A stretch of 64,000 bases of DNA. Origin: Candidatus Kapaibacterium sp. Its GTDB lineage: Bacteria; Bacteroidota; Ignavibacteria; Kapaibacteriales; Kapaibacteriaceae. The position numbers were made by a program, and so were the translations under genes. Below, piece after piece: positions 6,001 to 60,414 of this stretch (position 1 is the stretch's first letter; each line of letters starts with the position of its first letter). The stretch is taken from the NCBI GenBank assembly GCA_038202665.1, contig JBBRES010000001.1, forward strand, positions 13,255-77,254, in the 5' to 3' direction. The notes under the pieces were generated by a model. That model was given only the letters and a program-made list of their open reading frames with translations, had not been told where the DNA came from and ran no database searches.

Positions 6001-6741
6001 TCACTCGCCAAGGTAGCCGTGAACCGTAAGCAAGCTCATATCGGCCGTTGCCGTGGTAAAGGCCGCAAATGTGGGCTCCGTTCCAAGCCAATGTCCGAGG
6101 TTGACGTACAGACCACGTCCGATCTGTTCCTCTGCGGCAATGTGACGGTGACCCATCACAACCACATCAAACCCCTCGGCAATGCGTTCTGCTGCGAAAT
6201 CACGGATGCCGTCTGTAGTACCGAAGTCTTTCCTATCCGTGTATTCCCTGCTACCCTCGGAGGTGCCAGAGGCAAGCCCTATTCCTAGGTCGGGATGCAA
6301 AACACGGTACACCCACTGCGCAAAGGGATTGCGAAGCACCGTGCGCAACATGAGATACCCCATGTCGTTGTGGGCTTTTCCGTCTCCATGCGAGATATAG
6401 AACAGCTTCTCACCCAGGCGCACCGATACGTCGCCCGTAATCACTTGCAGACCCAACTCCTCTTCGAAGTAGGTGTAATGCCCGAAGTCGTGGTTGCCCA
6501 TCAGGTACGTCATGGGTACGCCAGCATCTCGAAGGTTATGAAGGGCGGCAAGGGTGCGCACGTGACGTCGGGGGACAACGGTTTTATAGTCAAACCAGTA
6601 GTCAAACAGGTCGCCCACGATAAAAACGTGCGCCGCGTCGCGAGAAAGTCGGTCCAGCAACCTCAGCAGCAACCGCTCCCGCTCTCGGTCTGCCTCCGGC
6701 TTCCCGAAGCCCAAGTGGACGTCGGACAAGAAGTAGACCAT
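6001..6741 (-). CDS. LpxH-like metallophosphoesterase (UDP-2,3-diacylglucosamine hydrolase family)
   Basis: Calcineurin-like motifs DVHLG, GDLFDYW and GNHDF are present. The start was chosen at the Met giving MVYFLSDVHLG. The ORF extends further upstream, to 6852. Confidence 0.6.
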   Translation of the reverse strand: MVYFLSDVHLGFGKPEADRERERLLLRLLDRLSRDAAHVFIVGDLFDYWFDYKTVVPRRHVRTLAALHNLRDAGVPMTYLMGNHDFGHYTYFEEELGLQVITGDVSVRLGEKLFYISHGDGKAHNDMGYLMLRTVLRNPFAQWVYRVLHPDLGIGLASGTSEGSREYTDRKDFGTTDGIRDFAAERIAEGFDVVVMGHRHIAAEEQIGRGLYVNLGHWLGTEPTFAAFTTATADMSLLTVHGYLGE

Positions 6742-6869
6742 GGGGCCACGCGTCAGATCAAGGCTGAGCGATGTAAGGGAAACAACCGGTTCAAGCATAT
6801 ATGGACGAAAATAGACCCCTTTCCCCTTTCCCCTTTCACTTTCCTCCTTCACCTGTATCTTTGTTCACC

Positions 6870-7682
6870 ATGAATCCCTCCATTCGCAAACGCGTGACCA
6901 CTCGCAGAGTGATCGAAATGAAGCGGGCCGGCGAGCCGATCGCCTGCCTTACGGCATACGATGCCATGACGGCAGCGTTGTTCGATACGGCGGGGATTGA
7001 TGTAATACTTGTGGGAGACTCCGTAGGGAACGTTGTGCAGGGTCATGAGACCACGCTCCCGGTCACCCTCGAACACATGATCTACCACACGCAGGCAGTG
7101 ATGCGCGGAAATCTCCACGCACTCATCGTCACAGACATGCCGTTTATGTCGTACCAAGTCACCCCTCAAGAGGCTTTCCGCAACGCAGGAAGGATCATGA
7201 AGGAGGCAGGGAGCGGGGCCGTGAAGCTCGAGGGTGGACAGCGTGTTCTCGACGCGGTGCGTATGATGACCGACAGTGGCATTCCGGTGATGGGTCATCT
7301 TGGCCTTACCCCTCAGAGCATCCATCAGTTTGGTTCCTACAAGCAACGTGGCACTTCCGAAGAAGAGGCAGACACAATCAAGCGGGATGCCGTTGCCTTG
7401 CAAGAGGCTGGGGCGTTTGCCGTTGTGTTGGAGAAGATTCCGGCAACGCTTGCCGCAATTGTCACGTCGATGGTAGATATACCAACGATTGGCATTGGCG
7501 CTGGCACGGCGTGTGACGGACAGATTCTTGTGTGGACCGATATGTTGGGCATGAGTACCGAGTTTCGTCCGCGCTTCGTACGTCGGTACGCAGAGTTGCA
7601 CGACGTGATCACGTCGGCCGTAGCCGCCTATGTAGAAGATGTTCGTGAGCGTCGGTTCCCAGACACCGAGGAAAGCTATTGA
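6870..7682 (+). CDS. panB: 3-methyl-2-oxobutanoate hydroxymethyltransferase
   Basis: PanB family similarity (MKRAGEPIACLTAYDA...ILVGDSVGNVV). The start was taken at MNPSIRKR. Confidence 0.9.
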   Translation: MNPSIRKRVTTRRVIEMKRAGEPIACLTAYDAMTAALFDTAGIDVILVGDSVGNVVQGHETTLPVTLEHMIYHTQAVMRGNLHALIVTDMPFMSYQVTPQEAFRNAGRIMKEAGSGAVKLEGGQRVLDAVRMMTDSGIPVMGHLGLTPQSIHQFGSYKQRGTSEEEADTIKRDAVALQEAGAFAVVLEKIPATLAAIVTSMVDIPTIGIGAGTACDGQILVWTDMLGMSTEFRPRFVRRYAELHDVITSAVAAYVEDVRERRFPDTEESY

Positions 7683-26248: not shown

Positions 26249-27625
26249 ATGTTCTTCAAACAGATCTACGAACCAGGCCTCGCCCACGCATCGTACATGG
26301 TGGGATGTCAGAAAACCGGAACCGTCATGGTGATCGACGCCAAGCGTGACGTCGACACGTACATCGAGATCGCACAGCAGGAACGACTGCAGATCACGCA
26401 CCTTACCGAAACGCACATTCATGCAGACTTCTTAAGCGGAACGCGCGAACTCGCCGCGCTCACGGGCGCAGAAATGCTGCTGAGTGATGAGGGCGGCGAG
26501 GAGTGGCGCTACGAGTTTCCGCATACTGGACTCAGGAATGGCGACATCTTTATGGTGGGTAACATTAAGGTGGAGGTTGTTCACACACCAGGCCATACAC
26601 CTGAGCACATCTCCTTCTTGGTAACCGACACTCCGGCCATTGCGGACGTACCGATTATGATGTTCACAGGCGACTTCGTCTTTGTTGGCGATGTTGGACG
26701 TCCGGATCTTCTTGAAAAGGCGGCAGGGTACAAGGGCACGATGGAGATTGGGGCACGACAACTTTGGACTTCCCTTGCCGCCTTCCGCGCCTTACCAGAC
26801 CATATTCAGGTTCATCCTGCACATGGTGCCGGATCTGCTTGTGGCAAGGCTCTAGGTGCGATTCCTTCGTCGACGGTGGGGTATGAAAAACTAGTAAACT
26901 GGGCATTGCGCCACACCAACGAAGAAGAGTTCGTGCAAGAGCTTCTGTCGGGTCAGCCAGAGCCTCCCTACTACTTTGCCCACATGAAACGCTTAAACAA
27001 AGTTGATCGTCCGCTCCTTCCAAACGTACCCGAGCTCAAACGACTTTCGCTTGCCGATATCGACGATGCTCTAGCGAACAACCAAAACATCGTAGACACG
27101 CGGTCGAAGGTGTCGTTCGCAGGTGGACACATTCCGAACACAATCAACATCCAAGACAACAAGGCCTTCTCTACATGGGCCGGCTGGATGCTCGACTACA
27201 ATGAGCCCTTCACCGTAATCGCTCCTCCTGAACGCACAAACGAGATCATGCGGAAGCTTATGCGCATCGGACTTGATTCTGTTCGCGGCGTTATCGAAGA
27301 CGTCACCATGTGGACGGATGCCGGCAGAGACCTGGCTACTGTTCCACAAATCGACCTTGACGAACTCAAGCAACGCTACGATCATGAGAACGTATTCGTA
27401 GTCGATGTACGCGGTGCAACGGAACATGCGGAAGGTCATATCCCAGGCGCAACAAACATTCATGCCGGCTACCTTCCGCAGCACTACGCAGAAATTCCGA
27501 GAGACAAAGTCGTCGTAATCTCCTGTCAATCCGGCGACCGCTCCAGCATCGCAACATCCATGATGCTTCGCGCCGGATTCACCAACGTGGTAAACTTCCC
27601 GTTGGGGTTTGGGGGATGGAAGTGA
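26249..27625 (+). CDS. persulfide dioxygenase-rhodanese fusion (MBL-fold + two rhodanese domains, CstB-like)
   Basis: MBL-fold motifs (THIHADF, HTPGHTPEH), a non-catalytic rhodanese domain and a catalytic rhodanese with a CQSGDRS loop. The stop TGA is the first triplet of repeat array A. Confidence 0.8.
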   Translation: MFFKQIYEPGLAHASYMVGCQKTGTVMVIDAKRDVDTYIEIAQQERLQITHLTETHIHADFLSGTRELAALTGAEMLLSDEGGEEWRYEFPHTGLRNGDIFMVGNIKVEVVHTPGHTPEHISFLVTDTPAIADVPIMMFTGDFVFVGDVGRPDLLEKAAGYKGTMEIGARQLWTSLAAFRALPDHIQVHPAHGAGSACGKALGAIPSSTVGYEKLVNWALRHTNEEEFVQELLSGQPEPPYYFAHMKRLNKVDRPLLPNVPELKRLSLADIDDALANNQNIVDTRSKVSFAGGHIPNTINIQDNKAFSTWAGWMLDYNEPFTVIAPPERTNEIMRKLMRIGLDSVRGVIEDVTMWTDAGRDLATVPQIDLDELKQRYDHENVFVVDVRGATEHAEGHIPGATNIHAGYLPQHYAEIPRDKVVVISCQSGDRSSIATSMMLRAGFTNVVNFPLGFGGWK

Positions 27626-27940
27626 GTAAAGTGAGAAGTGACGAGTGAGAAGTGAGAAGTCAAGTGAGAAGTGACGAGTGAGAAGTTCGTAAAGTGACAA
27701 GTGACGAGTGAGAAGTGAGAAGTCAAGTGAGAAGTGAGAAGTGAGAAGTGAGAAGTTCGTAAAGTGACAAGTGACGAGTGAGAAGTTCGTAAAGTGACAA
27801 GTGACGAGTGAGAAGTGAGAAGTCAAGTGAGAAGTGACAAGTGAGAAGTGGAATGTGACAGTCTGCCGGGAGGCTGCCGGGAGGCTGCCGGGAGGCTGCC
27901 GGGAGGCTGCCGGGAAGGGTGAGGAGTAAGAAGTGAGAAG
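27621..27940 (+). repeat. composite satellite array A: about 30 GTGAGAA-type heptamers, then 5x CTGCCGGGAGG, then 2-3 heptamers
   Basis: Tandem periodicity read directly. Unit variants are GTGAGAA, GTGACGA, GTGACAA, GTCAA and TTCGTAAA. The array fills the entire spacer between the PDO stop and the S51 peptidase GTG start. Confidence 0.95.
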
Positions 27941-29734: not shown

Positions 29735-30125
29735 TCGTTATTGTACACTTTCGCAGTCGTACCCGTTCGTCGCACCTCGCTATCGTTGTCCTATACTTTC
29801 GTCGCACTTCGCTTTCGTCGTACTTCGCTTTCGTAATACTCCCCTTTCGTAGAACTTCGTTTTCGTAGCACTTCGCTTTCGTCGTACTTCGCTTTCGTCG
29901 TACTTCGCTTTCGCAGAACTTCGCTTTCGTAGCACTTCGCTTTCGTAAAACTTCGTTTCGTCGTACTTCGCTTTCGTCGTACTTCGCTTTCGTCGTACTT
30001 CGCTTTCGCAGAACTTCGTTTTCGTAGCACTTCGTTTTCGTAATACTTCGTTATCGTAATACCTCGCTTTCGAAGCACTTCGTTTTCGAAACACTTCGTC
30101 TACGAAGTCCTTCGTTCTTGCAGTC
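29735..30125. repeat. satellite array B: about 24 tandem copies of a 16-mer, CTTCGCTTTCGTNGNA
   Basis: Perfect 16-bp periodicity over about 390 bp between convergent tauE-like and der 3' ends. Distal copies degrade into short palindromes (ACTTCGTCTACGAAGT). Confidence 0.95.
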
Positions 30126-30169
30126 CCTTGCTTTTTAGCCGAATGCTTTCGCTGCCGTACGTTTTCGCA

Positions 30170-31540: not shown

Positions 31541-31727
31541 AAGTGAGAAGTGAGAAGTAAGCAAAGTGAGAAGTGACAAGTGAGAAGTAAGAAGTAAGTA
31601 AAGTGAGAAGTGACAAGTGAGGAGTGAGAAGTCAAGTGAGAGGTGAGAAGTGAGAAGTGAGTAAAGTGACAAGTGAGAAGTGAGAAGTGAGGAGTGAGTA
31701 AAGCGAGAAGAGACAAGTGAGGAGTGG
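31541..31727 (+). repeat. satellite array C: about 27 GTGAGAA-type heptamers
   Basis: Same unit family as array A. It lies in the divergent spacer between der (-) and the four-helix-bundle gene (+). Confidence 0.95.
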
Positions 31728-31814
31728 CGCCCTTTTAAGAGCTATGTCACGTTTGGGGGTCATCTAGGCCCCAGGTGGTGGAGGCACCAATCACTATGAA
31801 ACAAGCATAATCAT

Positions 31815-32192
31815 ATGAAAAGCGAGCAGGAATCGCCCCTTTTCGTCAAATCTGGGCAGTTAGCGGACCGAATACGGAATATTGCCCATGCAAAGTGGTG
31901 GGTTGACACCGACCGCGACATTCTGCGGCAAGTTCTCCGTTCTGGGACTTCAGTTGGCGCTAACTACCGAGAGGCCTGGTTTGCTGAAAGCAAAAACGAC
32001 TTCGCACACAAACTCAAGATTGTCCGAAAAGAGGCGAACGAGACGCTCTATTGGCTTGAACTTCTATCACAAACTCCGAGGTCACACATGTGTACCGACC
32101 TTGAATGCGCCCAACAACTCGCGCGCGAGATCATCTACTTGACCACCGCGTCAATCACTTCGTTAGGCCGTAAGCCTCCAAAGCCAACCTAG
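31815..32192 (+). CDS. four-helix-bundle protein (23S rRNA intervening-sequence protein family)
   Basis: Family pattern ..GANYREAWFAESKNDFAHKLKIVRKEANETLYWLELL. It is bracketed by inverted arrays C and D. Confidence 0.75.
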   Translation: MKSEQESPLFVKSGQLADRIRNIAHAKWWVDTDRDILRQVLRSGTSVGANYREAWFAESKNDFAHKLKIVRKEANETLYWLELLSQTPRSHMCTDLECAQQLAREIIYLTTASITSLGRKPPKPT

Positions 32193-32295
32193 CCCATACA
32201 CTGCAGCCAAACACGAAAAACATCGGCTATGCTCGACGCCTACGTGCGTCCGATAACTCCCGAAGTACTATACACCAAACCAACTATCGCACTTT

Positions 32296-32632
32296 CCCGG
32301 CAGCTTCCCGGCAGCCTCCCGGCAGACTGTCACATTCCACTCGTCACTTCTCACTTCTCACTTGACTTCTCACTTCTCACTCGTCACTTGTCACTTTACC
32401 CACTTCTCACTCGTCACTTGTCACTTTACCCACTTCTCACTCGTCACTTGTCACTTTACCCACTTCTCACTTGTCACTTGACTTCTCACTTCTCACTCGT
32501 CACTTGTCACTTTACCCACTTCTCACTTGTCACTTTACCCACTTCTCACTCGTCACTTCTCACTTGACTTCTCACTTCTCACTCGTCACTTGTCACTTTA
32601 CCCACTTCTCACTTTACTCACTTCTCATTCTT
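32296..32632 (-). repeat. satellite array D: 3x (C)CCCGGCAG followed by about 42 TTCTCAC-type heptamers with a 28-bp higher-order unit
   Basis: It is the reverse complement of array A. The higher-order unit CACTTCTCACTCGTCACTTGTCACTTTAC(C) repeats about 7 times. The array runs into the stop codon of the 32618..33526 gene. Confidence 0.95.
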
Positions 32633-54460: not shown

Positions 54461-54494
54461 GGCGGCTTGCTTCGGCAAGCCGCCATTTCTTTTT
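54461..54494 (+). terminator. Rho-independent terminator after desaturase
   Basis: GGCGGCTTGC-ttcg-GCAAGCCGCC perfect 10-bp stem followed by ATTTCTTTTT. Confidence 0.8.
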
Positions 54495-55042
54495 CACACA
54501 TACTTGGTTGCGCCAACAGCATTTGTCAAGGGCGGAACCACCCTATGATCAATGAAGCTCATTTCATTAACTACAGCTTTTTATGGAAAGGAATTGTTTT
54601 CAATTTTGCGCGCGTAGATTACGAACGGAGGAACGCTACGTAGGATACAGAGAAGTGCATCCTGTGGGGGCGTTGACGCCATGAATTGGTGATTCGATCG
54701 CCGATTGCAGTACAGGCATACTTTCCAATCGCTGCTGAAGTTCTTTGGGAACCATACGGTCTGCGATATTCTTGAACACCACGTTCAATCTAGATTTCTC
54801 TACAAGGATGGCCTCATCCAAATCAGCATTCCTGTTGGTTATCGGGCAGATAGTCTCATGCGCTGGTGTGAATTTGAAGAACATGACGATTGCTTGCTTT
54901 CTCGCAGCATACTCAATAGTTTGTGTTCGTCATATAGCAGAGTCGCCAATATCATCGCCACGGCACCGTGTATGTGCTGCACACCTTGAGTACTTGATTC
55001 CGTTATACGACATGATTACCGCAACCGGCAACAGGGGGTTCT

Positions 55043-57277
55043 ATGACACGTGTCGTGCAATTCGTCATTCTTGTACTCCTGTACTCGCAGTGTATGCTCC
55101 TCCATGCGCAACCAGCGCTACTCTGGCTTCGTGATGGGCAGCCACTAAATGTTCAGATTGTTGCCTATAATCAGGCGACACATCTCCTGATCACCCATTC
55201 TAGAACATTCCTCTATGTGTGGGATACTGATGCCGACACCGTCATTTGGCGGACATATTTACCCTCCCCGGTTGAATGGGTGTCGTACGTGGACGATTCG
55301 ACAGTTATGGTGCTACGATATCGCGACCTCTACCAGATGCGGATCCGGGACGGTTCTATCGTACAACAAACGTCTTGCTCTTGCGTAACGTGGGCAAGCC
55401 CGACATACCGCTTTGGTGGTTCCATGTTCCAGTACAAAGACCTTGACAGCATCATAGTCACGGATATCAAATCTGGATTTACGGTGATGAAAACACAGTG
55501 GCGAGAAGGACATACACCATTTTTCAAGTTCTGGGATTATGACACCACTACCAAGCGACTCTACTGTTCGGCATTAAACACCCTTTTCTACATCGACTCG
55601 AGCGGGGTTACGCATTCTCTCGATACTCTTGAAAGGATGGGCGACTTACCTGTGGGTTGGACGATGATCGACAATGGGACGATCGTTGTCACAGTTGTTC
55701 AGCAACGCGACTCCCTGCGTGCGGTCTTGTATGCGTATGACAGAAAGGATCTCCAGCTCCAGGACAGCCTCTACATAGCATCTGCGCCGCTCTGGCCAGG
55801 TAGACCCTTTCTACCAATCGGGAAGATTGGTGAGTCTATCGTCTTTGACGCCTTTTTGCAAAAGATCGTTGTCGTTCGAACATCACCACTGCGGATTGAA
55901 CAAACGACGGTTGTCGATGTTCACGGCCCGGCAGCGGTGTTCGTCCAGCCTGATAGTGTTTGTTTTAGAGACCTGTCAGGGGCGAATATCATTCACGATG
56001 TCTTTTCTTCCGGGAATCGCATGCTCTTGCCCAAGCGAACCGCTATTCGCAATGCGCACTGTGGACCGAATTCTGAACTACTTGTCGAGCAAGAGCGTGA
56101 AGCACCAATTGTACTAAACATTCGCACCGGGGAGGATGAACTAACACCATGGAATCCATTGCCTAGACGAATTCAGAATGGAGATGATCTTCACGTCGGA
56201 GGTCGTTCCGGGTGTGCCATTGTTAGCATCAGCAACATTCAATCGAGCTTCGTTCTACCATACGGAGATACCACTGTCCTGTGTAAAATCGAAGGCGAAG
56301 ACGATCACTTCGGACTCGGTGTAAGTAGGGCGTACAATCCGTATGTCTGTTGGGCCGACTCCACAGGCACAGAGCTCGACATTGTATTCCGCCACTCGCT
56401 TTGGGTTCAGGGATTTTCAGAGTACGGAATAGGAATTTACCGGACCAGTAGGCCATGCACAGATACCATGTATACTAACCAAGATTATTCCACGACCTTC
56501 GTCGAGACGGAGTATGAAGGAAACCAGATGCCATTGCCAGTTGCGTCTGAAGATGGCGGCTCAGTCTTTGTTCCTGGTTACAAAATCGTCGAGGGCCCGT
56601 TCCGACAACCGTTGCCCGGCATTACTCTTATAACAGGAATTCAGCACAGCTCCCCCTATTTGAGCACGAATCGAGCCTTTAGTTCTTATCGTGGGTTGTT
56701 CCTGCACCAGCCACACCTTGCCGTCAGAGACACGGATAGCGGGTACTTGATCTTTAGCACAACAGACTCGCTGTACCAAGATCGCCATGTGTACGGATCT
56801 CGATATCTGCCGATGGCCATTTTAAACTCGTCTGATGACGTAATCATGCATGGTGATTCTGGCCTTCAATGCCTCGACCCAAATACGGGCACTATCAAGT
56901 GGAAGATCATTGTTCCCGCTGTACCAACTCGAGTCTTGATAGAGCCACGCGATAGGTGGATGTGCGTGATCTACGCGTTTGGGCGCATTGAGTTGTATGC
57001 GCTCGATCCGTCCGTGAATGTGCCACATCAGGAATCTGAATCCGCTCCATTTCGCGTCTACCCTAATCCCGTTCACGATCAATTGACGGTAACATGTTCG
57101 ACAACCGTTTACGATTATCAAGTGCGTGACATTGTTGGGAGACTCGTTTACGGAGGTGTGACATCAACGCCGTCCAGTCAGTTCACAATCGATACCGGAT
57201 TACTCGTATCAGGAACCTACATGTTAGTACTTCACACAGACAGAGCGTATTCCATGCAGGCATTTATCAAGCACTAG
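55043..57277 (+). CDS. secreted beta-propeller protein with C-terminal T9SS sorting domain (paralog-like to 12987..15146)
   Basis: Signal peptide. The C-terminal pattern FRVYPNPVHDQLTV...YQVRDIVGRLVYGG..SGTYMLVL is the T9SS tail pattern. Confidence 0.7.
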   Translation: MTRVVQFVILVLLYSQCMLLHAQPALLWLRDGQPLNVQIVAYNQATHLLITHSRTFLYVWDTDADTVIWRTYLPSPVEWVSYVDDSTVMVLRYRDLYQMRIRDGSIVQQTSCSCVTWASPTYRFGGSMFQYKDLDSIIVTDIKSGFTVMKTQWREGHTPFFKFWDYDTTTKRLYCSALNTLFYIDSSGVTHSLDTLERMGDLPVGWTMIDNGTIVVTVVQQRDSLRAVLYAYDRKDLQLQDSLYIASAPLWPGRPFLPIGKIGESIVFDAFLQKIVVVRTSPLRIEQTTVVDVHGPAAVFVQPDSVCFRDLSGANIIHDVFSSGNRMLLPKRTAIRNAHCGPNSELLVEQEREAPIVLNIRTGEDELTPWNPLPRRIQNGDDLHVGGRSGCAIVSISNIQSSFVLPYGDTTVLCKIEGEDDHFGLGVSRAYNPYVCWADSTGTELDIVFRHSLWVQGFSEYGIGIYRTSRPCTDTMYTNQDYSTTFVETEYEGNQMPLPVASEDGGSVFVPGYKIVEGPFRQPLPGITLITGIQHSSPYLSTNRAFSSYRGLFLHQPHLAVRDTDSGYLIFSTTDSLYQDRHVYGSRYLPMAILNSSDDVIMHGDSGLQCLDPNTGTIKWKIIVPAVPTRVLIEPRDRWMCVIYAFGRIELYALDPSVNVPHQESESAPFRVYPNPVHDQLTVTCSTTVYDYQVRDIVGRLVYGGVTSTPSSQFTIDTGLLVSGTYMLVLHTDRAYSMQAFIKH

Positions 57278-58003
57278 CATGTCACGTGCTGTCGAAGTTG
57301 GCCTTGAGTGATTTCTGGTCTTGATAACCTTGATCATCGTTGCATAATCGTTTTTATTCTGATTGGCGTTCTCACTGGAGAACGATGCATTTGCTTCATC
57401 AATCATGTCGCTCCTTCCCAGATAGCTACCAATTGCTGATTGTTGTCCGCACGGAGCGTGAGAAAACGTAGGTGCCTAACCACAACATTTGGCATGGTCG
57501 TCCTTTTCCGTCGAGCCGTGCATCACGACCATCAATCCTACCTCGGCACTGTAAGCATACCATCAAATCCATCACCTATGAGTTGATGTGTTGAGTTAGT
57601 TTCGCACCATTACCACTAGGAGGTGGAATGATGTGACAGAGAGATACGATGGTTACGTGTTCGAGCAGTGGAAGCGTAGTGGAATTGGCAAGGAGCCTTA
57701 TGCGAGGTAGCACGGCGGTGCTGTAAGATTTGCAATGTGCCGCCTTTCAATGCTACATGCCACCACACAAACATCAAAGCGCATAACTGGCTTCGATACG
57801 CCATGTTGAATGTCAACTCCACTGCGCCCGCGGACTATCACGCACTCTTGCCAAACGCTATCGACCCTGCACTTCTGGCGCAACGTCCTAGGTGTACGTG
57901 CACTACTGTTTACTCAACTGGCCGCGTGTTTCGGGGTTGACTTGGTACTCGTGCGTTCTCCCACCTGCCGATAACTGCAGGGGTACTGCATTGGAATAGG
58001 TGA

Positions 58004-58190
58004 GGCTCACTTCTCACTTCTCACTTCTCACTTCTCACTTCTCACTTAACTTGCCACTACTTTCCTTCCCGGCAGCTGCCGGGAAGCTTCCCGGCAGAAA
58101 TTCATTTTTCTTCTCACTTCTCACTTCTCACTTAACTTGTCACTTGTCACTCGTCACTTCTCACTTTAACTCGTCACTTCTCACTTTAAC
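58004..58190 (-). repeat. satellite array E: TTCTCAC x5, palindromic CCCGGCAG/CTGCCGGG core x3, then TTCTCAC-type heptamers
   Basis: CCCGGCAGCTGCCGGGAAGCTTCCCGGCAG contains two overlapping perfect palindromes (16 bp and 22 bp). It is flanked by the same heptamers as arrays A, C and D. Confidence 0.95.
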
Positions 58191-58335
58191 TTTCCTCTTG
58201 CCTTCCCTCCCTACCATCCTTCACGATCTTCGCACGCGGCTCTTTCGGGATCCTTTTCGCGTTGTGAGTCCAGGATATGTAGAGGCCAATGAAGTAGCGG
58301 CGAAGTCGGGTGATGTAGTGGTGTTATGTAGGGCA

Positions 58336-60414
58336 ATGTGCGACTATGCCTTTGCCATCATTCACATGAGTGACGCGAGACGCGCGATCGATCTGTTGAG
58401 CGACGCACATACGTTGGCTGCGAAGTTGAAGGACGAGGGCCTGACGGCCGAGTGTGAATTGTGGCAGGCGGCAGTGGCGCACTGGACGAATGATGCGGGC
58501 GACGTGGTGGCGCGGATCGACATGGTGGTGGAGCGTTGCGTGCACGCGGGCCGACGTGATCTCTTGCCCATAGCGGCGTGCTTGAAGGCATTGCAGATCG
58601 AGCGTCGCACATCGTCGCTCGACGCCATGCGCGCCTTCGACCATGCGTTGCAATTGCTTTCGTCTACCGACGATCCGTGGGCTATCTCTTTTGTACATCG
58701 CTATGCCGGACTAGCATGGAAGAATGCAGGCAACAACACGCACGCTCTCGAGCACCTAGAGTTCGCTCGCGATGTAGCGGAACGTCACGGACTTCTTGCC
58801 GTCCTCGCGCGGACGTTGGGAAGTCTGGGAACGATTCACGTAAGCACCCGACATTCAAAGCTCGCACTAGACGAACTTCTTCCGGCCATTACGCTCTACG
58901 AAGACCTCGAGATCAGCGATTGGTATGTGGCCGAATGTCTGCTTGGCATGGGAACCGTCCTCACACATGCCGCAGATTACCTGCCTGCACTTTCATATCT
59001 CCAGCGCGCCTTCGATGTTTGGCAGCTCACTGGCGATCTCGCAGGACAAGGTCGTGCCATGAACGTGATGGGCGCTGTACACGACTATCTCCACGAGGAC
59101 GATTCCGCTCTTTCTTGCTATGAGCGTTCATACGAGCTGTTTCGGTCTTCACCATGGCGCGATCCAAACGAGACGTTTCCGCTCTCGAACAAGGCTCAAA
59201 TCCATATCCGTCGCGGTGAGTATCCAGAAGCTCGAACGCTGCTCGAAACAGCGCTCGAACATGCCACGTCCACGAAGAGTCCACGCGGCACATCGCTTGC
59301 GCTGACGGCTTTAGGCGGTCTGTTTGCCAATCGCAGTACACCGTTCTTCAACGACAAACATGCCGAAGAACTGTTGTTGCGTACGCTTGACGTTGACAAA
59401 TCCGGCGGCTTCGAAAACGAAGAGGCACTCAAACATCTCTCGGAACTCTACGAGGAGCGTGGAGATCCGGTGCAGGCGCTTGCGTATCATAAGCGCTACA
59501 CAGAGCTGGTTCTTCGCATGAAGGACGACAGTGCGCAACGTCGCGTATCAGAGATCGAAACACAGCGCGCCATCGAAGCAGCAAAACGGCAGACAGAGAT
59601 TGAGCACCTTCGCAACGTCGATCTCAAGAATGCACTCGACGAATTACGATCCGCTCAAACGCAGCTCATTCACGCAGAGAAAATGGCATCGCTTGGTCAG
59701 CTCACTGCGGGCATCGCCCACGAAATCAATAACCCCATAAACTTCATCGCCAGTAGTATCGGTCCACTTCGGCGCGACCTTCGCGATTATGATGGATTGA
59801 AGGGGCAGGGCAGCGAGGCGAACGAGCTTCGCGACGAGATCATCATACTCTTGAATGGCATTGAAACCGGTGCGCAGCGCACAGCAGAGATTGTGAAAAG
59901 TCTTCGGTCGTTTACACGACTGGACGAGGGAGACGTTAAGAACGTAGACCTCCATGAAGGTCTTGAATCGACACTCATGCTCTTGGGTACGAGAATACGT
60001 GAGGGAGTAGCCATCGTTCGCAACTTTGGCACACTTCCCCGTGTGGAGTGCAATGCAGGACAGGTCAATCAAGTGTTCATGAACGTGATCGCCAATGCAC
60101 TCGATGCACTCGAGGGGCGACCCGATAGACGCATCGAGATCACCACCACCCAGCCCGACCTCAAGCATGTTGTAGTCCGTATTGCCGACAATGGACCTGG
60201 GATCCCTGAAGATGTTCTCGACCACCTGTTTGAGCCCTTCTTTACCACGAAGGACGTGGGAAAGGGAACCGGACTGGGCCTTTCTATCAGTTATGGCATT
60301 ATTGAGCAGCATCAAGGGACCATTTCCGTTGTAATCGACAACGGAACGGCGTTCATCATAACCCTTCCGCTCGTACATTCGCAGAGGGAATCAACGCAAT
60401 CGGAAGCCGCATGA
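58336..60414 (+). CDS. TPR-repeat sensor histidine kinase (cytoplasmic)
   Basis: TPR-like N-terminus, a HisKA H-box ([12 protein letters not shown]) and HATPase_c (N box, [19 protein letters not shown]). The start is uncertain because the upstream part of the ORF is repeat E translation. Confidence 0.7.

Follow-up and report, generated by a model that had tools for sequence, protein, structure and literature searches.

The best-described systems of the kind considered here are the repetitive extragenic palindromic (REP) sequences, known as REP, BIME, or REPIN, and their REP-associated tyrosine transposases (RAYTs), exemplified by TnpA-REP in Escherichia coli and the REPINs of Pseudomonas. They share with our element short, GC-rich, hairpin-forming extragenic repeats that often lie just past genes (PMC3116915, PMC5581495, PMC3479197, PMC3733652). 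A Y1 transposase gene bracketed by dispersed intergenic repeats is a hallmark of these systems (PMC3116915, PMC5581495, PMC3733652), and a conserved GTAG (or CGTC) tetranucleotide stands at the base of the REP hairpin (PMC3733652, PMC3479197). Elements of the IS200/IS605 type (IS608, ISDra2) similarly combine a Y1 HUH fold with subterminal hairpins on both sides of the gene that are recognized as single-stranded DNA (ssDNA). To our knowledge, work on REP/RAYT systems has been confined almost entirely to Proteobacteria. Heptanucleotide tandem repeats, for their part, were reportedly described in cyanobacteria as STRR sequences by Mazel et al. (1990, J Bacteriol), being intergenic, present many times per genome, and variable in copy number. 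Here, we analyzed a 64,000-nt stretch of a Candidatus Kapaibacterium sp. genome (contig JBBRES010000001.1, positions 13,255 to 77,254; hereafter, the window, in whose own numbering all coordinates are given), with a focus on array E (58006-58193), a composite of 7- and 11-nt repeats upstream of a sensor histidine kinase gene.

The palindrome within array E is probably one copy of a genome-wide family of hairpin repeats of the REP/RAYT kind rather than a control site specific to the kinase. We likewise consider it likely that its 11-nt unit, of consensus CTKCCSGGMAG, is the REP-type sequence of a lineage related to Candidatus Kapabacteria/Ignavibacteria. The observations behind this reading are a dispersed, structured, and unstable repeat family, its link to a RAYT-type gene in three related lineages, and the lack of the palindrome in the sequence recovered upstream of orthologous kinases. 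Array E works like REP/BIME elements, but its architecture, with spacer-free 11-mers, long direct runs, and a fixed heptamer junction, is unlike that of the described REP families. A literature search on REP or tandem repeats in Kapabacteria or Ignavibacteria found no paper describing these repeats.

Palindromic structure and predicted folding of array E

Array E consists of the following features; the 11-nt units were read directly in the sequence.

58006..58047, + strand: left heptamer block, six perfect copies of CTCACTT (Tandem Repeats Finder [TRF] and sequence)
58048..58064, + strand: 17-nt spacer AACTTGCCACTACTTTC (sequence)
58065..58075, + strand: 11-nt unit F1, CTTCCCGGCAG
58076..58086, + strand: 11-nt unit R, CTGCCGGGAAG, the reverse complement of F
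58087..58097, + strand: 11-nt unit F2, CTTCCCGGCAG
58065..58086, unstranded: perfect 22-bp palindrome 1, F|R, centered on CAG|CTG
58076..58097, unstranded: perfect 22-bp palindrome 2, R|F, centered on AAG|CTT
58098..58110, + strand: T-rich flank AAATTCATTTTTC, a recurrent junction of the family
58110..58193, + strand: right heptamer block, degenerate, with CTTCTCA, CTTGTCA, and CTCGTCA variants (TRF)

The F and R units differ at 3 of their 11 positions (3, 6, and 9), the unit being a quasi-palindrome, and F-R-F is thus equivalent to a direct run with three bases changed in one unit. The nested perfect palindromes between two heptamer blocks that the original prediction had proposed are borne out by this F-R-F order and its flanking heptamers. 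Their overlap and the 22-bp length of one of them were correctly called as well; the 16-bp palindrome given beside it (58068-58083) is the core of the first 22-bp one. Palindromes 1 and 2 are the sole perfect palindromes of at least 20 bp in the window, against a chance expectation of 0.11 per 64 kb (mean of first-order Markov simulations). The F|R junction of palindrome 1 recurs in the repeat family and beside RAYT genes, and the R|F junction of palindrome 2 was found in array E alone among the 52 non-duplicate arrays examined. The 8-nt core CCCGGCAG occurs 13 times in the window versus 1.55 expected, with 11 of the 13 occurrences in arrays A, D, and E. These are the three 11-mer arrays of the 64 kb, all intergenic and surrounded by ordinary chromosomal genes; in A and D the core indeed forms direct 11-bp repeats, as had been claimed.

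Folding predictions indicated stable hairpins. As RNA, array E reached about −23 to −25 kcal/mol (z −4.5 and −3.2). As ssDNA, it would be limited to a 9-bp stem closed by a 4-nt loop, with two registers in competition (−11.3 kcal/mol). F-R-R, the commonest palindromic form of the family, as found at locus L170, is predicted to form a 13-bp perfect ssDNA stem (CTTCCCGGCAGCT / AGCTGCCGGGAAG) with a 7-nt loop, at −16.7 and −18.7 kcal/mol (z −4 to −5), and the four-unit site at L190 scored −27 kcal/mol as ssDNA. The geometry had been described as that of an operator for a dimeric protein or of a cruciform-forming site; these hairpins favor the structural half of that proposal, and an operator for a kinase-specific dimeric regulator found no support. 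By analogy with TnpA-REP, the family is very likely recognized in hairpin form by a RAYT-type HUH transposase.

Other identities considered for the array were set aside. The 7- and 11-nt units run head to tail without spacers, unlike CRISPR arrays, which have 24- to 48-nt repeats and unique spacers of similar size. Iterons were dropped, several arrays lying <30 kb apart, and so was a coding repeat, because a 7-nt period cannot hold a reading frame and the open reading frames (ORFs) across the arrays are mechanical. Rfam gave no match, either for the whole window at gathering scores or for 57200-58300 at E ≤ 1, and the 22-mer palindrome was not found in viral contigs.

A dispersed repeat family and the RAYT-type genes it brackets

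A 31-nt degenerate three-unit pattern was used to scan metagenome contigs and returned 88 loci. Forty-three of these have window-like G+C (0.49-0.56) and carry the exact unit except for a few divergent ones (such as L120 and L166); many of the 43 adjoin GAGAAGT-type heptamers, and about 32 distinct arrays were left after removal of duplicates. A looser scan of genome contigs with the 20-nt pattern CTGCCGGGARGCTKCCSGGM yielded 92 scattered single chance matches in unrelated phyla, none with heptamers. Arrays on the related contigs are mostly direct runs of 3-4 units, with a maximum of 9; overall, direct runs make up 41 of the 52 non-duplicate arrays. Heptamers, where present, are invariably on the 5′ side of the CTGCCGGGARG run, with GTCAC(R)TTT placed exactly 3 nt from the array end, giving a fixed architecture of heptamer array, AAAYGTGAC, 3 nt, and CTGCCGGGARG run. 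The sequence AAATKCATTTTT that follows F runs in L158/L143, L170, and L097 is the same junction as the T-rich flank of array E. The family contigs showed no DNA or protein homology to genes of the window, and orthologous arrays could therefore not be compared from them.

Both the number and the orientation of units are unstable. Unit counts at single loci differ between samples (8/4/4, 9/4/4, 4/3, 3/4/6, and 4/5/5/6), and orientation sometimes differs between near-identical strains. The units themselves are pure F or pure R in 192 of 196 cases; with just 4 hybrids, orientation flips appear concerted rather than built from accumulating point mutations. F→R palindromes occur at six distinct loci; most are made of three units, which read F-R-R on one strand and F-F-R on its complement, and the form f-F-R-r is seen as well. 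All six solo F→R sites lie 2-19 nt past the stop codon of a long ORF, and the adjacent ORFs have Pfam hits in 6/6 cases. Taking all arrays together, the closest gene terminus was of the 3′ kind in 21 cases and of the 5′ kind in 6 (one-sided binomial P = 0.003).

A metagenome-assembled genome (MAG) of the same species, GCA_965610785.1, allowed a direct comparison of arrays, since two of its contigs encode exactly the Der and T9SS-tail (type IX secretion system) proteins of the window. Over ∼6 kb of sequence external to the arrays, a few substitutions separate the two assemblies; within the arrays, the MAG differs by −11 nt in array A, −16 nt in array B, and −30 nt in array D, plus several heptamer changes. 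Short-read contigs break at the heptamer arrays linked to the 11-mers, and contig 69 of the MAG stops inside the left heptamer block of array E. Another MAG contig, CBFDKD010000088 (L093), matches the window from 33726 down to 27644 and leaves synteny inside the heptamers of array A; from there (L093 6022 onward), it runs into GAPDH, PGK, and other genes not in the window, and its 11-mer unit beside the junction is inverted (F-F-F-R). This break reflects either a true rearrangement at the repeat or a chimeric joining of short reads.

The repeats also bracket a transposase gene, placed on one of the related contigs as follows.

L170:5752-6345: HUH/Tyr Y1_Tnp protein P0121, 197 aa, one of the genes between two F-R-R sites

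At L170, the left F-R-R, with ctaGTCACGTTT after it, is situated 62 bp before the ATG, and the right F-R-R lies 8 nt past the stop codon. The 77% orthologue on a 1-Mb MAG contig (L190) has CTTCCCGGCAG TTGCCCGGCAG CTGCCGGGCAA CTGCCGGGAGG plus cttGTCACGGTTT on its left flank and three forward units with one reverse unit on its right. A 61% orthologue (L194) carries the same core on both sides, with GTCACGTATT on the left. The 53% orthologue, found in three Ignavibacteria MAGs (L191-L193), has on both sides ∼10 tandem copies of a different, 28-bp unit; the repeat thus changes as the protein diverges. This unit, CCGGGAGTCTTACTCTCCCGGAGTCATG, is itself a hairpin with a 7-bp stem (2640-2925 and 3625-3875 in L191-L193) and is accompanied on the left by GTCACGTTT. 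Its copy number varies between the MAGs, and more short GC-rich tandem repeats lie upstream.

P0121 matched Pfam Y1_Tnp with 45 bits, and its best NCBIfam model was the REP-associated tyrosine transposase (NF047646; 70.2 bits). It contains the motifs NHFHL and RYVHRNPV, and residues H60, H62, Y120, N124, and P125 are invariant in 35 homologues. Many homologues bear the JGI name RayT. The HUH and Y-x3-N-P motifs align with those of the TnpA-REP structure 4ER8, in a protein whose residues H59, H61, Y115, and N119 have been defined (PMC3479197); the equivalent of H123 is not conserved. The AlphaFold model of P0121 (pLDDT 89) had 4ER8 as its top PDB match (E 2.9e-08), with a target-normalized TM-score of 0.75 over 160 columns, compared with 0.57-0.68 over ∼114 columns for the best IS608 and ISDra2 matches. 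As modeled, the fold is nearest to that of TnpA-REP, including the C-terminal extension, and not to that of IS200/IS605 TnpA. Protein P0130 gave no sign of multiple gene copies in the 20 contigs read, its three listed places having the same neighbors.

Array E shows the palindromic structure and inverted pairing that characterize REPs, and RAYT flanking is found on the related contigs. As in BIMEs, the units alternate in orientation (F-R-F here; F-R-R, F-F-R, and f-F-R-r at six other loci). As in REP/RAYT systems, they bracket a Y1 HUH transposase gene that is closest to TnpA-REP in sequence and predicted fold, and repeat and protein diverge together. The differences are these: the unit is an 11-nt quasi-palindrome in spacer-free tandem, and the hairpin is made by a change of orientation between units; a GTAG or CGTC tag is missing, and GTCAC(R)TTT is found instead, 3 nt from the array; long stretches of direct units are frequent and adjoin heptamer satellites in a fixed polarity; and the host lineage is Kapabacteria/Ignavibacteria-like, not proteobacterial. 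IS200/IS605 elements are set apart by the 17.9 bits of P0121 on the IS200 model versus 70.2 on the RAYT model, by its better and longer fold match to 4ER8, and by the dispersal of the 11-mer hairpin repeats far from the transposase gene. The 7-nt intergenic tandem arrays resemble cyanobacterial STRR sequences in the heptamer parts of arrays A, C, D, and E, a likeness by description only; unit and phylum are others, and here the heptamers are joined in fixed polarity to 11-mers.

By analogy with E. coli TnpA-REP, a RAYT-type transposase would recognize and spread these repeats as single-stranded hairpins. Runs of units would lengthen or shorten through replication slippage, and a unit would flip its orientation via one concerted three-base conversion, by template switching within the quasi-palindrome. 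Mutation by template switching in quasi-palindromes is an established process. On its minus strand, array E reads heptamers, GAAAAATGAATTT, R-F-R, and heptamers, and the canonical order is heptamers, the ATGAATTT junction, R-R-R, and heptamers; the ATGAATTT/ATGCATTT junction recurs in L143, L170, and L097. The simplest history of array E would be a direct three-unit run whose middle unit was converted, so that one event would create both palindromes. An effect on the kinase, if any, would be a positional side effect, such as that of a hairpin that stops or stabilizes a transcript arriving from the left or of a change in leader length.

Several observations weigh against a REP/RAYT assignment. 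No RAYT gene was detected in the 64-kb window by tblastn with RAYT, which revealed no further copies among the loci examined, and the putative link of RAYT to the window's own genome is indirect, through identical repeat units in related contigs; a look-up of the probable orthologue, the 84% homologue P0122, gave no record. P0121 itself falls under the curated cutoff of NF047646 (70.2 versus 80 bits). GTAG or CGTC is not adjacent to the stem in any of the array flanks listed; array E has CTAC 4 nt to its left, the wrong side and strand for a tag, and many arrays have GTCAC(R)TTT at 3 nt instead. Array E is F-R-F and not the usual F-R-R, with only a 9-bp stem and an R→F junction unique in the sample. 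Most arrays of the window are direct runs tied to heptamer satellites, unlike classical REP families, and slippage alone could maintain such runs. Finally, gene context on the metagenome contigs derives from a crude longest-ORF rule, with Pfam checks only around the inverted sites. A bolder version of the REP/RAYT reading, which we put forward tentatively as the less likely course, is that a RAYT clade of Kapabacteria/Ignavibacteria keeps a REP system of new design. Its tandem short units (the 11-nt quasi-palindrome and, in a distant relative, the 28-nt hairpin) would have GTCACGTTT as an anchor serving as guide or cleavage site. Heptamer satellites (AGTGAS-R, resembling GTCAC-TT on the other strand) would be transposase by-products at gene boundaries, and minisatellites would be generated rather than single hairpins dispersed.

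The kinase upstream region and competing explanations

The gene downstream of array E was defined by Pfam, orthologues, and comparison of N-terminal codons.

58198..60414, + strand: TPR-HisKA-HATPase sensor kinase

Orthologues of the kinase were found at 95, 89, 86, and 76% identity, the closest named sources being Candidatus Kapabacteria and Ignavibacteria MAGs; by this measure, the relative contigs are L183-L186 (95%), L189 (89%), L187 (86%), and L188 (76%). The N terminus MPSLPTILHDLRTRLFR(D/E)PFR is kept in four relatives, with changes mostly at third positions and an ATG start in three of them. Translation therefore most likely starts at TTG 58198, as judged from this conservation. With that start, the palindrome is located at −133 to −101, instead of the 140-250 bp upstream estimated before, and the heptamer array stops 4 nt before the start codon. 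In every relative (76 to 95% identity) a heptamer array abuts the kinase start codon, although the unit of the 76% relative differs (ATTCTCT). The length of this array varies widely, from 84 bp for the right block of the window through ∼100 bp (L187) to 370 bp or more (L183). With heptamers conserved as far as the start codon, the kinase must have its 5′ leader or promoter in pyrimidine-rich repeat.

In five relatives, neither the 11-mer unit nor the palindrome was seen in the 75-446 bp recovered upstream of the orthologous kinase (∼276-446 bp in L183-L185; the intergenic region in full, 345 bp, for L187; and 75-121 bp for L186, L188, and L189). The first part of the array E spacer, CTTAACTTGCCACT, is common to the 95%-identity relatives, where more heptamers follow it; in the window alone, it is followed by the 11-mer block, and thus by the palindrome, the T-rich flank, and 84 bp of heptamers. 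The right heptamer block is the portion of array E syntenic with the relatives, and the 11-mer block of the window constitutes an insertion/deletion difference within the heptamer array. Comparison with L187 revealed a 3.6-kb insertion/deletion difference (∼54.5-58.1 kb), after which homology resumes at 58109, with the palindrome at the right edge. This segment also carries the left heptamer block. The palindrome, missing from the recovered sequence of relatives and located at the edge of the 3.6-kb difference, therefore reflects a lineage-specific insertion or deletion and not a conserved control element of the kinase.

The 3.6-kb segment (54500-58108), not in L187, contains a degraded small ORF, a T9SS-tail beta-propeller-like gene (55043-57277), and a 720-bp non-coding stretch (57278-58000) with no ORF of >68 aa. 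Its left edge follows the conserved terminator of a desaturase gene (54463-54497). The non-coding stretch, taken as 57278-58005, matched only itself and the same-species MAG and had no Rfam match. Near the left edge of the segment, the minus strand (54636-54884) holds a degraded relative of an OmdA-domain ORF of L158; in L158 (10940-11290; compare L143), the 3′ end of that ORF is replaced by an 11-mer run, so that the array is translated as the C terminus. Neighbors of the kinase gene are the T9SS-tail protein gene and a gene for a receiver-HisKA-HATPase hybrid without a DNA-binding domain (Pfam). A database look-up of the 408-aa receiver-kinase of the window gave no record. A sigma-70-type promoter scan of 57200-58500 found nothing above chance.

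These comparisons bear on the two explanations that tie the palindrome to kinase expression. In the first, the F-R-F dyads would bind a dimeric transcription factor controlling the TPR histidine kinase operon. Two perfect dyads 100-133 bp upstream of the probable start codon and an 11-bp spacing that puts the units on one face of the helix would suit such an operator. Yet the palindrome was not seen in the five relatives with 76 to 95% identical kinases, where heptamers and N-terminal coding sequence are kept, and the 11-mer unit also occurs in direct runs, at convergent 3′ ends, and beside many unrelated genes, with unstable copy number and orientation. There is no DNA-binding regulator gene adjacent, the next gene being the receiver-histidine kinase hybrid. 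An operator role, as originally predicted, was to be doubted if the core occurred only inside satellites without correlation to promoters. Within the window it is essentially confined to satellites, and arrays on the related contigs favor 3′ ends over 5′ ends (21 versus 6); we regard this role as extremely improbable. A contingency (phase-variable) locus, in which changes in repeat length upstream of the start codon tune kinase expression, would fit the heptamer arrays that abut the start codon in all relatives and their range of lengths (84 bp, ∼100 bp, and at least 370 bp). It is nonetheless very unlikely, as the same arrays are also found at 3′ ends and between convergent genes and the 11-mer palindrome is no part of the conserved upstream array.

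Two further explanations concern the repeat itself. The R|F hairpin with its T-rich tail might end or stabilize a transcript that comes from the T9SS gene upstream and the non-coding 720 nt, or attenuate the kinase leader, and the palindrome would be kept for that purpose. Array E does resemble a Rho-independent terminator in its GC-rich 9-bp stem, 4-nt loop, and T-rich 3′ flank on the + strand; 58076-58097 plus AAATTCATTT was flagged as terminator-like in a pattern scan, its RNA fold is at −22.7 kcal/mol (z −4.5), family palindromes lie 2-19 nt past stop codons, and this one sits at the right edge of the segment that L187 is without. However, the tail reads AAAUUCAUUUUU, with a U run that begins off the stem, 7 nt past it, and the scan found 1 site versus 1.1 expected in shuffled sequence. 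The closest upstream stop codon is 788 bp away, and the same T-rich flank stands behind runs in L158/L143 that are direct and form no hairpin. U tracts are missing from the family palindromes, arrays take either orientation with respect to the gene upstream, and the window genome and L187 use canonical hairpin-plus-T terminators of different sequence, e.g., that at 54463-54497; array E belongs, moreover, to a dispersed repeat family. A role as terminator or insulator is thus possible but secondary, and as the main explanation it is unlikely. Alternatively, the 11-mer and heptamer arrays could be plain minisatellites evolving by neutral slippage with no transposase, F-R-F being a chance template-switch variant and the RAYT genes merely nearby. 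Unit-number polymorphism at every array compared, the predominance of direct runs (41/52 non-duplicate arrays), heptamers without 11-mers in array C, and a window without a RAYT gene all agree with this. Slippage, however, leaves unexplained the dozens of unlinked loci, the fixed polarity, and the GTCAC(R)TTT junction spaced by 3 nt, and four diverged RAYT orthologues are each bracketed by arrays on both sides, with the unit changed in the most distant one. We therefore hold a minisatellite origin without transposase to be rather doubtful and retain the REP/RAYT assignment.

Other arrays of the window and significance of the family

The remaining 11-mer and heptamer arrays of the window are listed below.

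27619..27917, + strand: array A, direct-form composite (sequence, TRF)
31541..31726, + strand: array C, made of (AAGTGAG)n heptamers alone, with the divergent genes der and 23S_rRNA_IVP on either side
32293..32631, − strand: array D, an inverted version of the array A architecture (sequence, TRF)

Array A starts at the stop codon of an MBL-rhodanese gene and is composed of (GAAGTGA)n heptamers (27619-27850), the junction GGAATGTGACAGT (27850-27862), and five copies of CTGCCGGGARG (27863-27917). Array D has three 11-mers (32293-32325), the junction ACTGTCACATTCC (32326-32338), and heptamers (32344-32631); it lies between two convergent 3′ ends, where a promoter is therefore not expected, and overlaps the stop codon of a 302-aa gene. 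The stop codons and final codons of the MBL-rhodanese gene (27623-27625) and the 302-aa gene (32618-32620) are inside the heptamer arrays, so that the repeats supply the ends of both reading frames. After array C comes GTCACGTTTGG (31746-31756), which is 61 bp upstream of the gene for the four-helix-bundle protein 23S_rRNA_IVP (31815-32192). The same motif is found 50-66 bp upstream of the RAYT genes in L170, L190, L191, and L194, and it may act in promotion of transcription or as a site for the transposase. Arrays C and D, inverted with respect to each other, enclose the IVP gene in the manner of a cassette; tblastn with the IVP protein found no further copies among the loci examined.

Repeats of other sequence are present as well. 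Array B comprises ∼18 copies of the 16-mer CTTTCGTAGTACTTCG (29796-30134) and separates two convergent genes, TauE and der; its sequence has no relation to that of the 7-mer and 11-mer arrays, and it is one unit shorter in the same-species MAG. A CCCCTTT-type short tandem repeat (6816-6852) lies where opposite-strand ORFs overlap (6001-6852, minus; 6801-7682, plus). Another repeat, GCGACACTAAGACGTG, and GTGCGACACGAAG-type sequences occur beside many 11-mer arrays (L106, L141, and L165) and in L187 (9694), which indicates several interleaved short-repeat families in these genomes.

For annotation, these findings call for masking the palindromes as repeats of one family instead of taking them as regulatory sites. 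Short-read assemblies break at the associated arrays, which also mark points of rearrangement or misjoining. The locus is ordinary as regards kinase regulation and of moderate interest to specialists in mobile DNA. For a clade within the Bacteroidota-Ignavibacteria-Chlorobi (FCB) group, it adds tandem 11-mers that would switch between direct and hairpin forms by a three-base flip and that are welded to heptamer satellites. Such a family offers a natural system in which to ask how a domesticated HUH transposase recognizes, amplifies, and inverts repeats and whether the arrays affect the genes they touch. If the new-design reading were true, the arrays would routinely make the last codons, stop codons, and 5′ leaders of ordinary genes.

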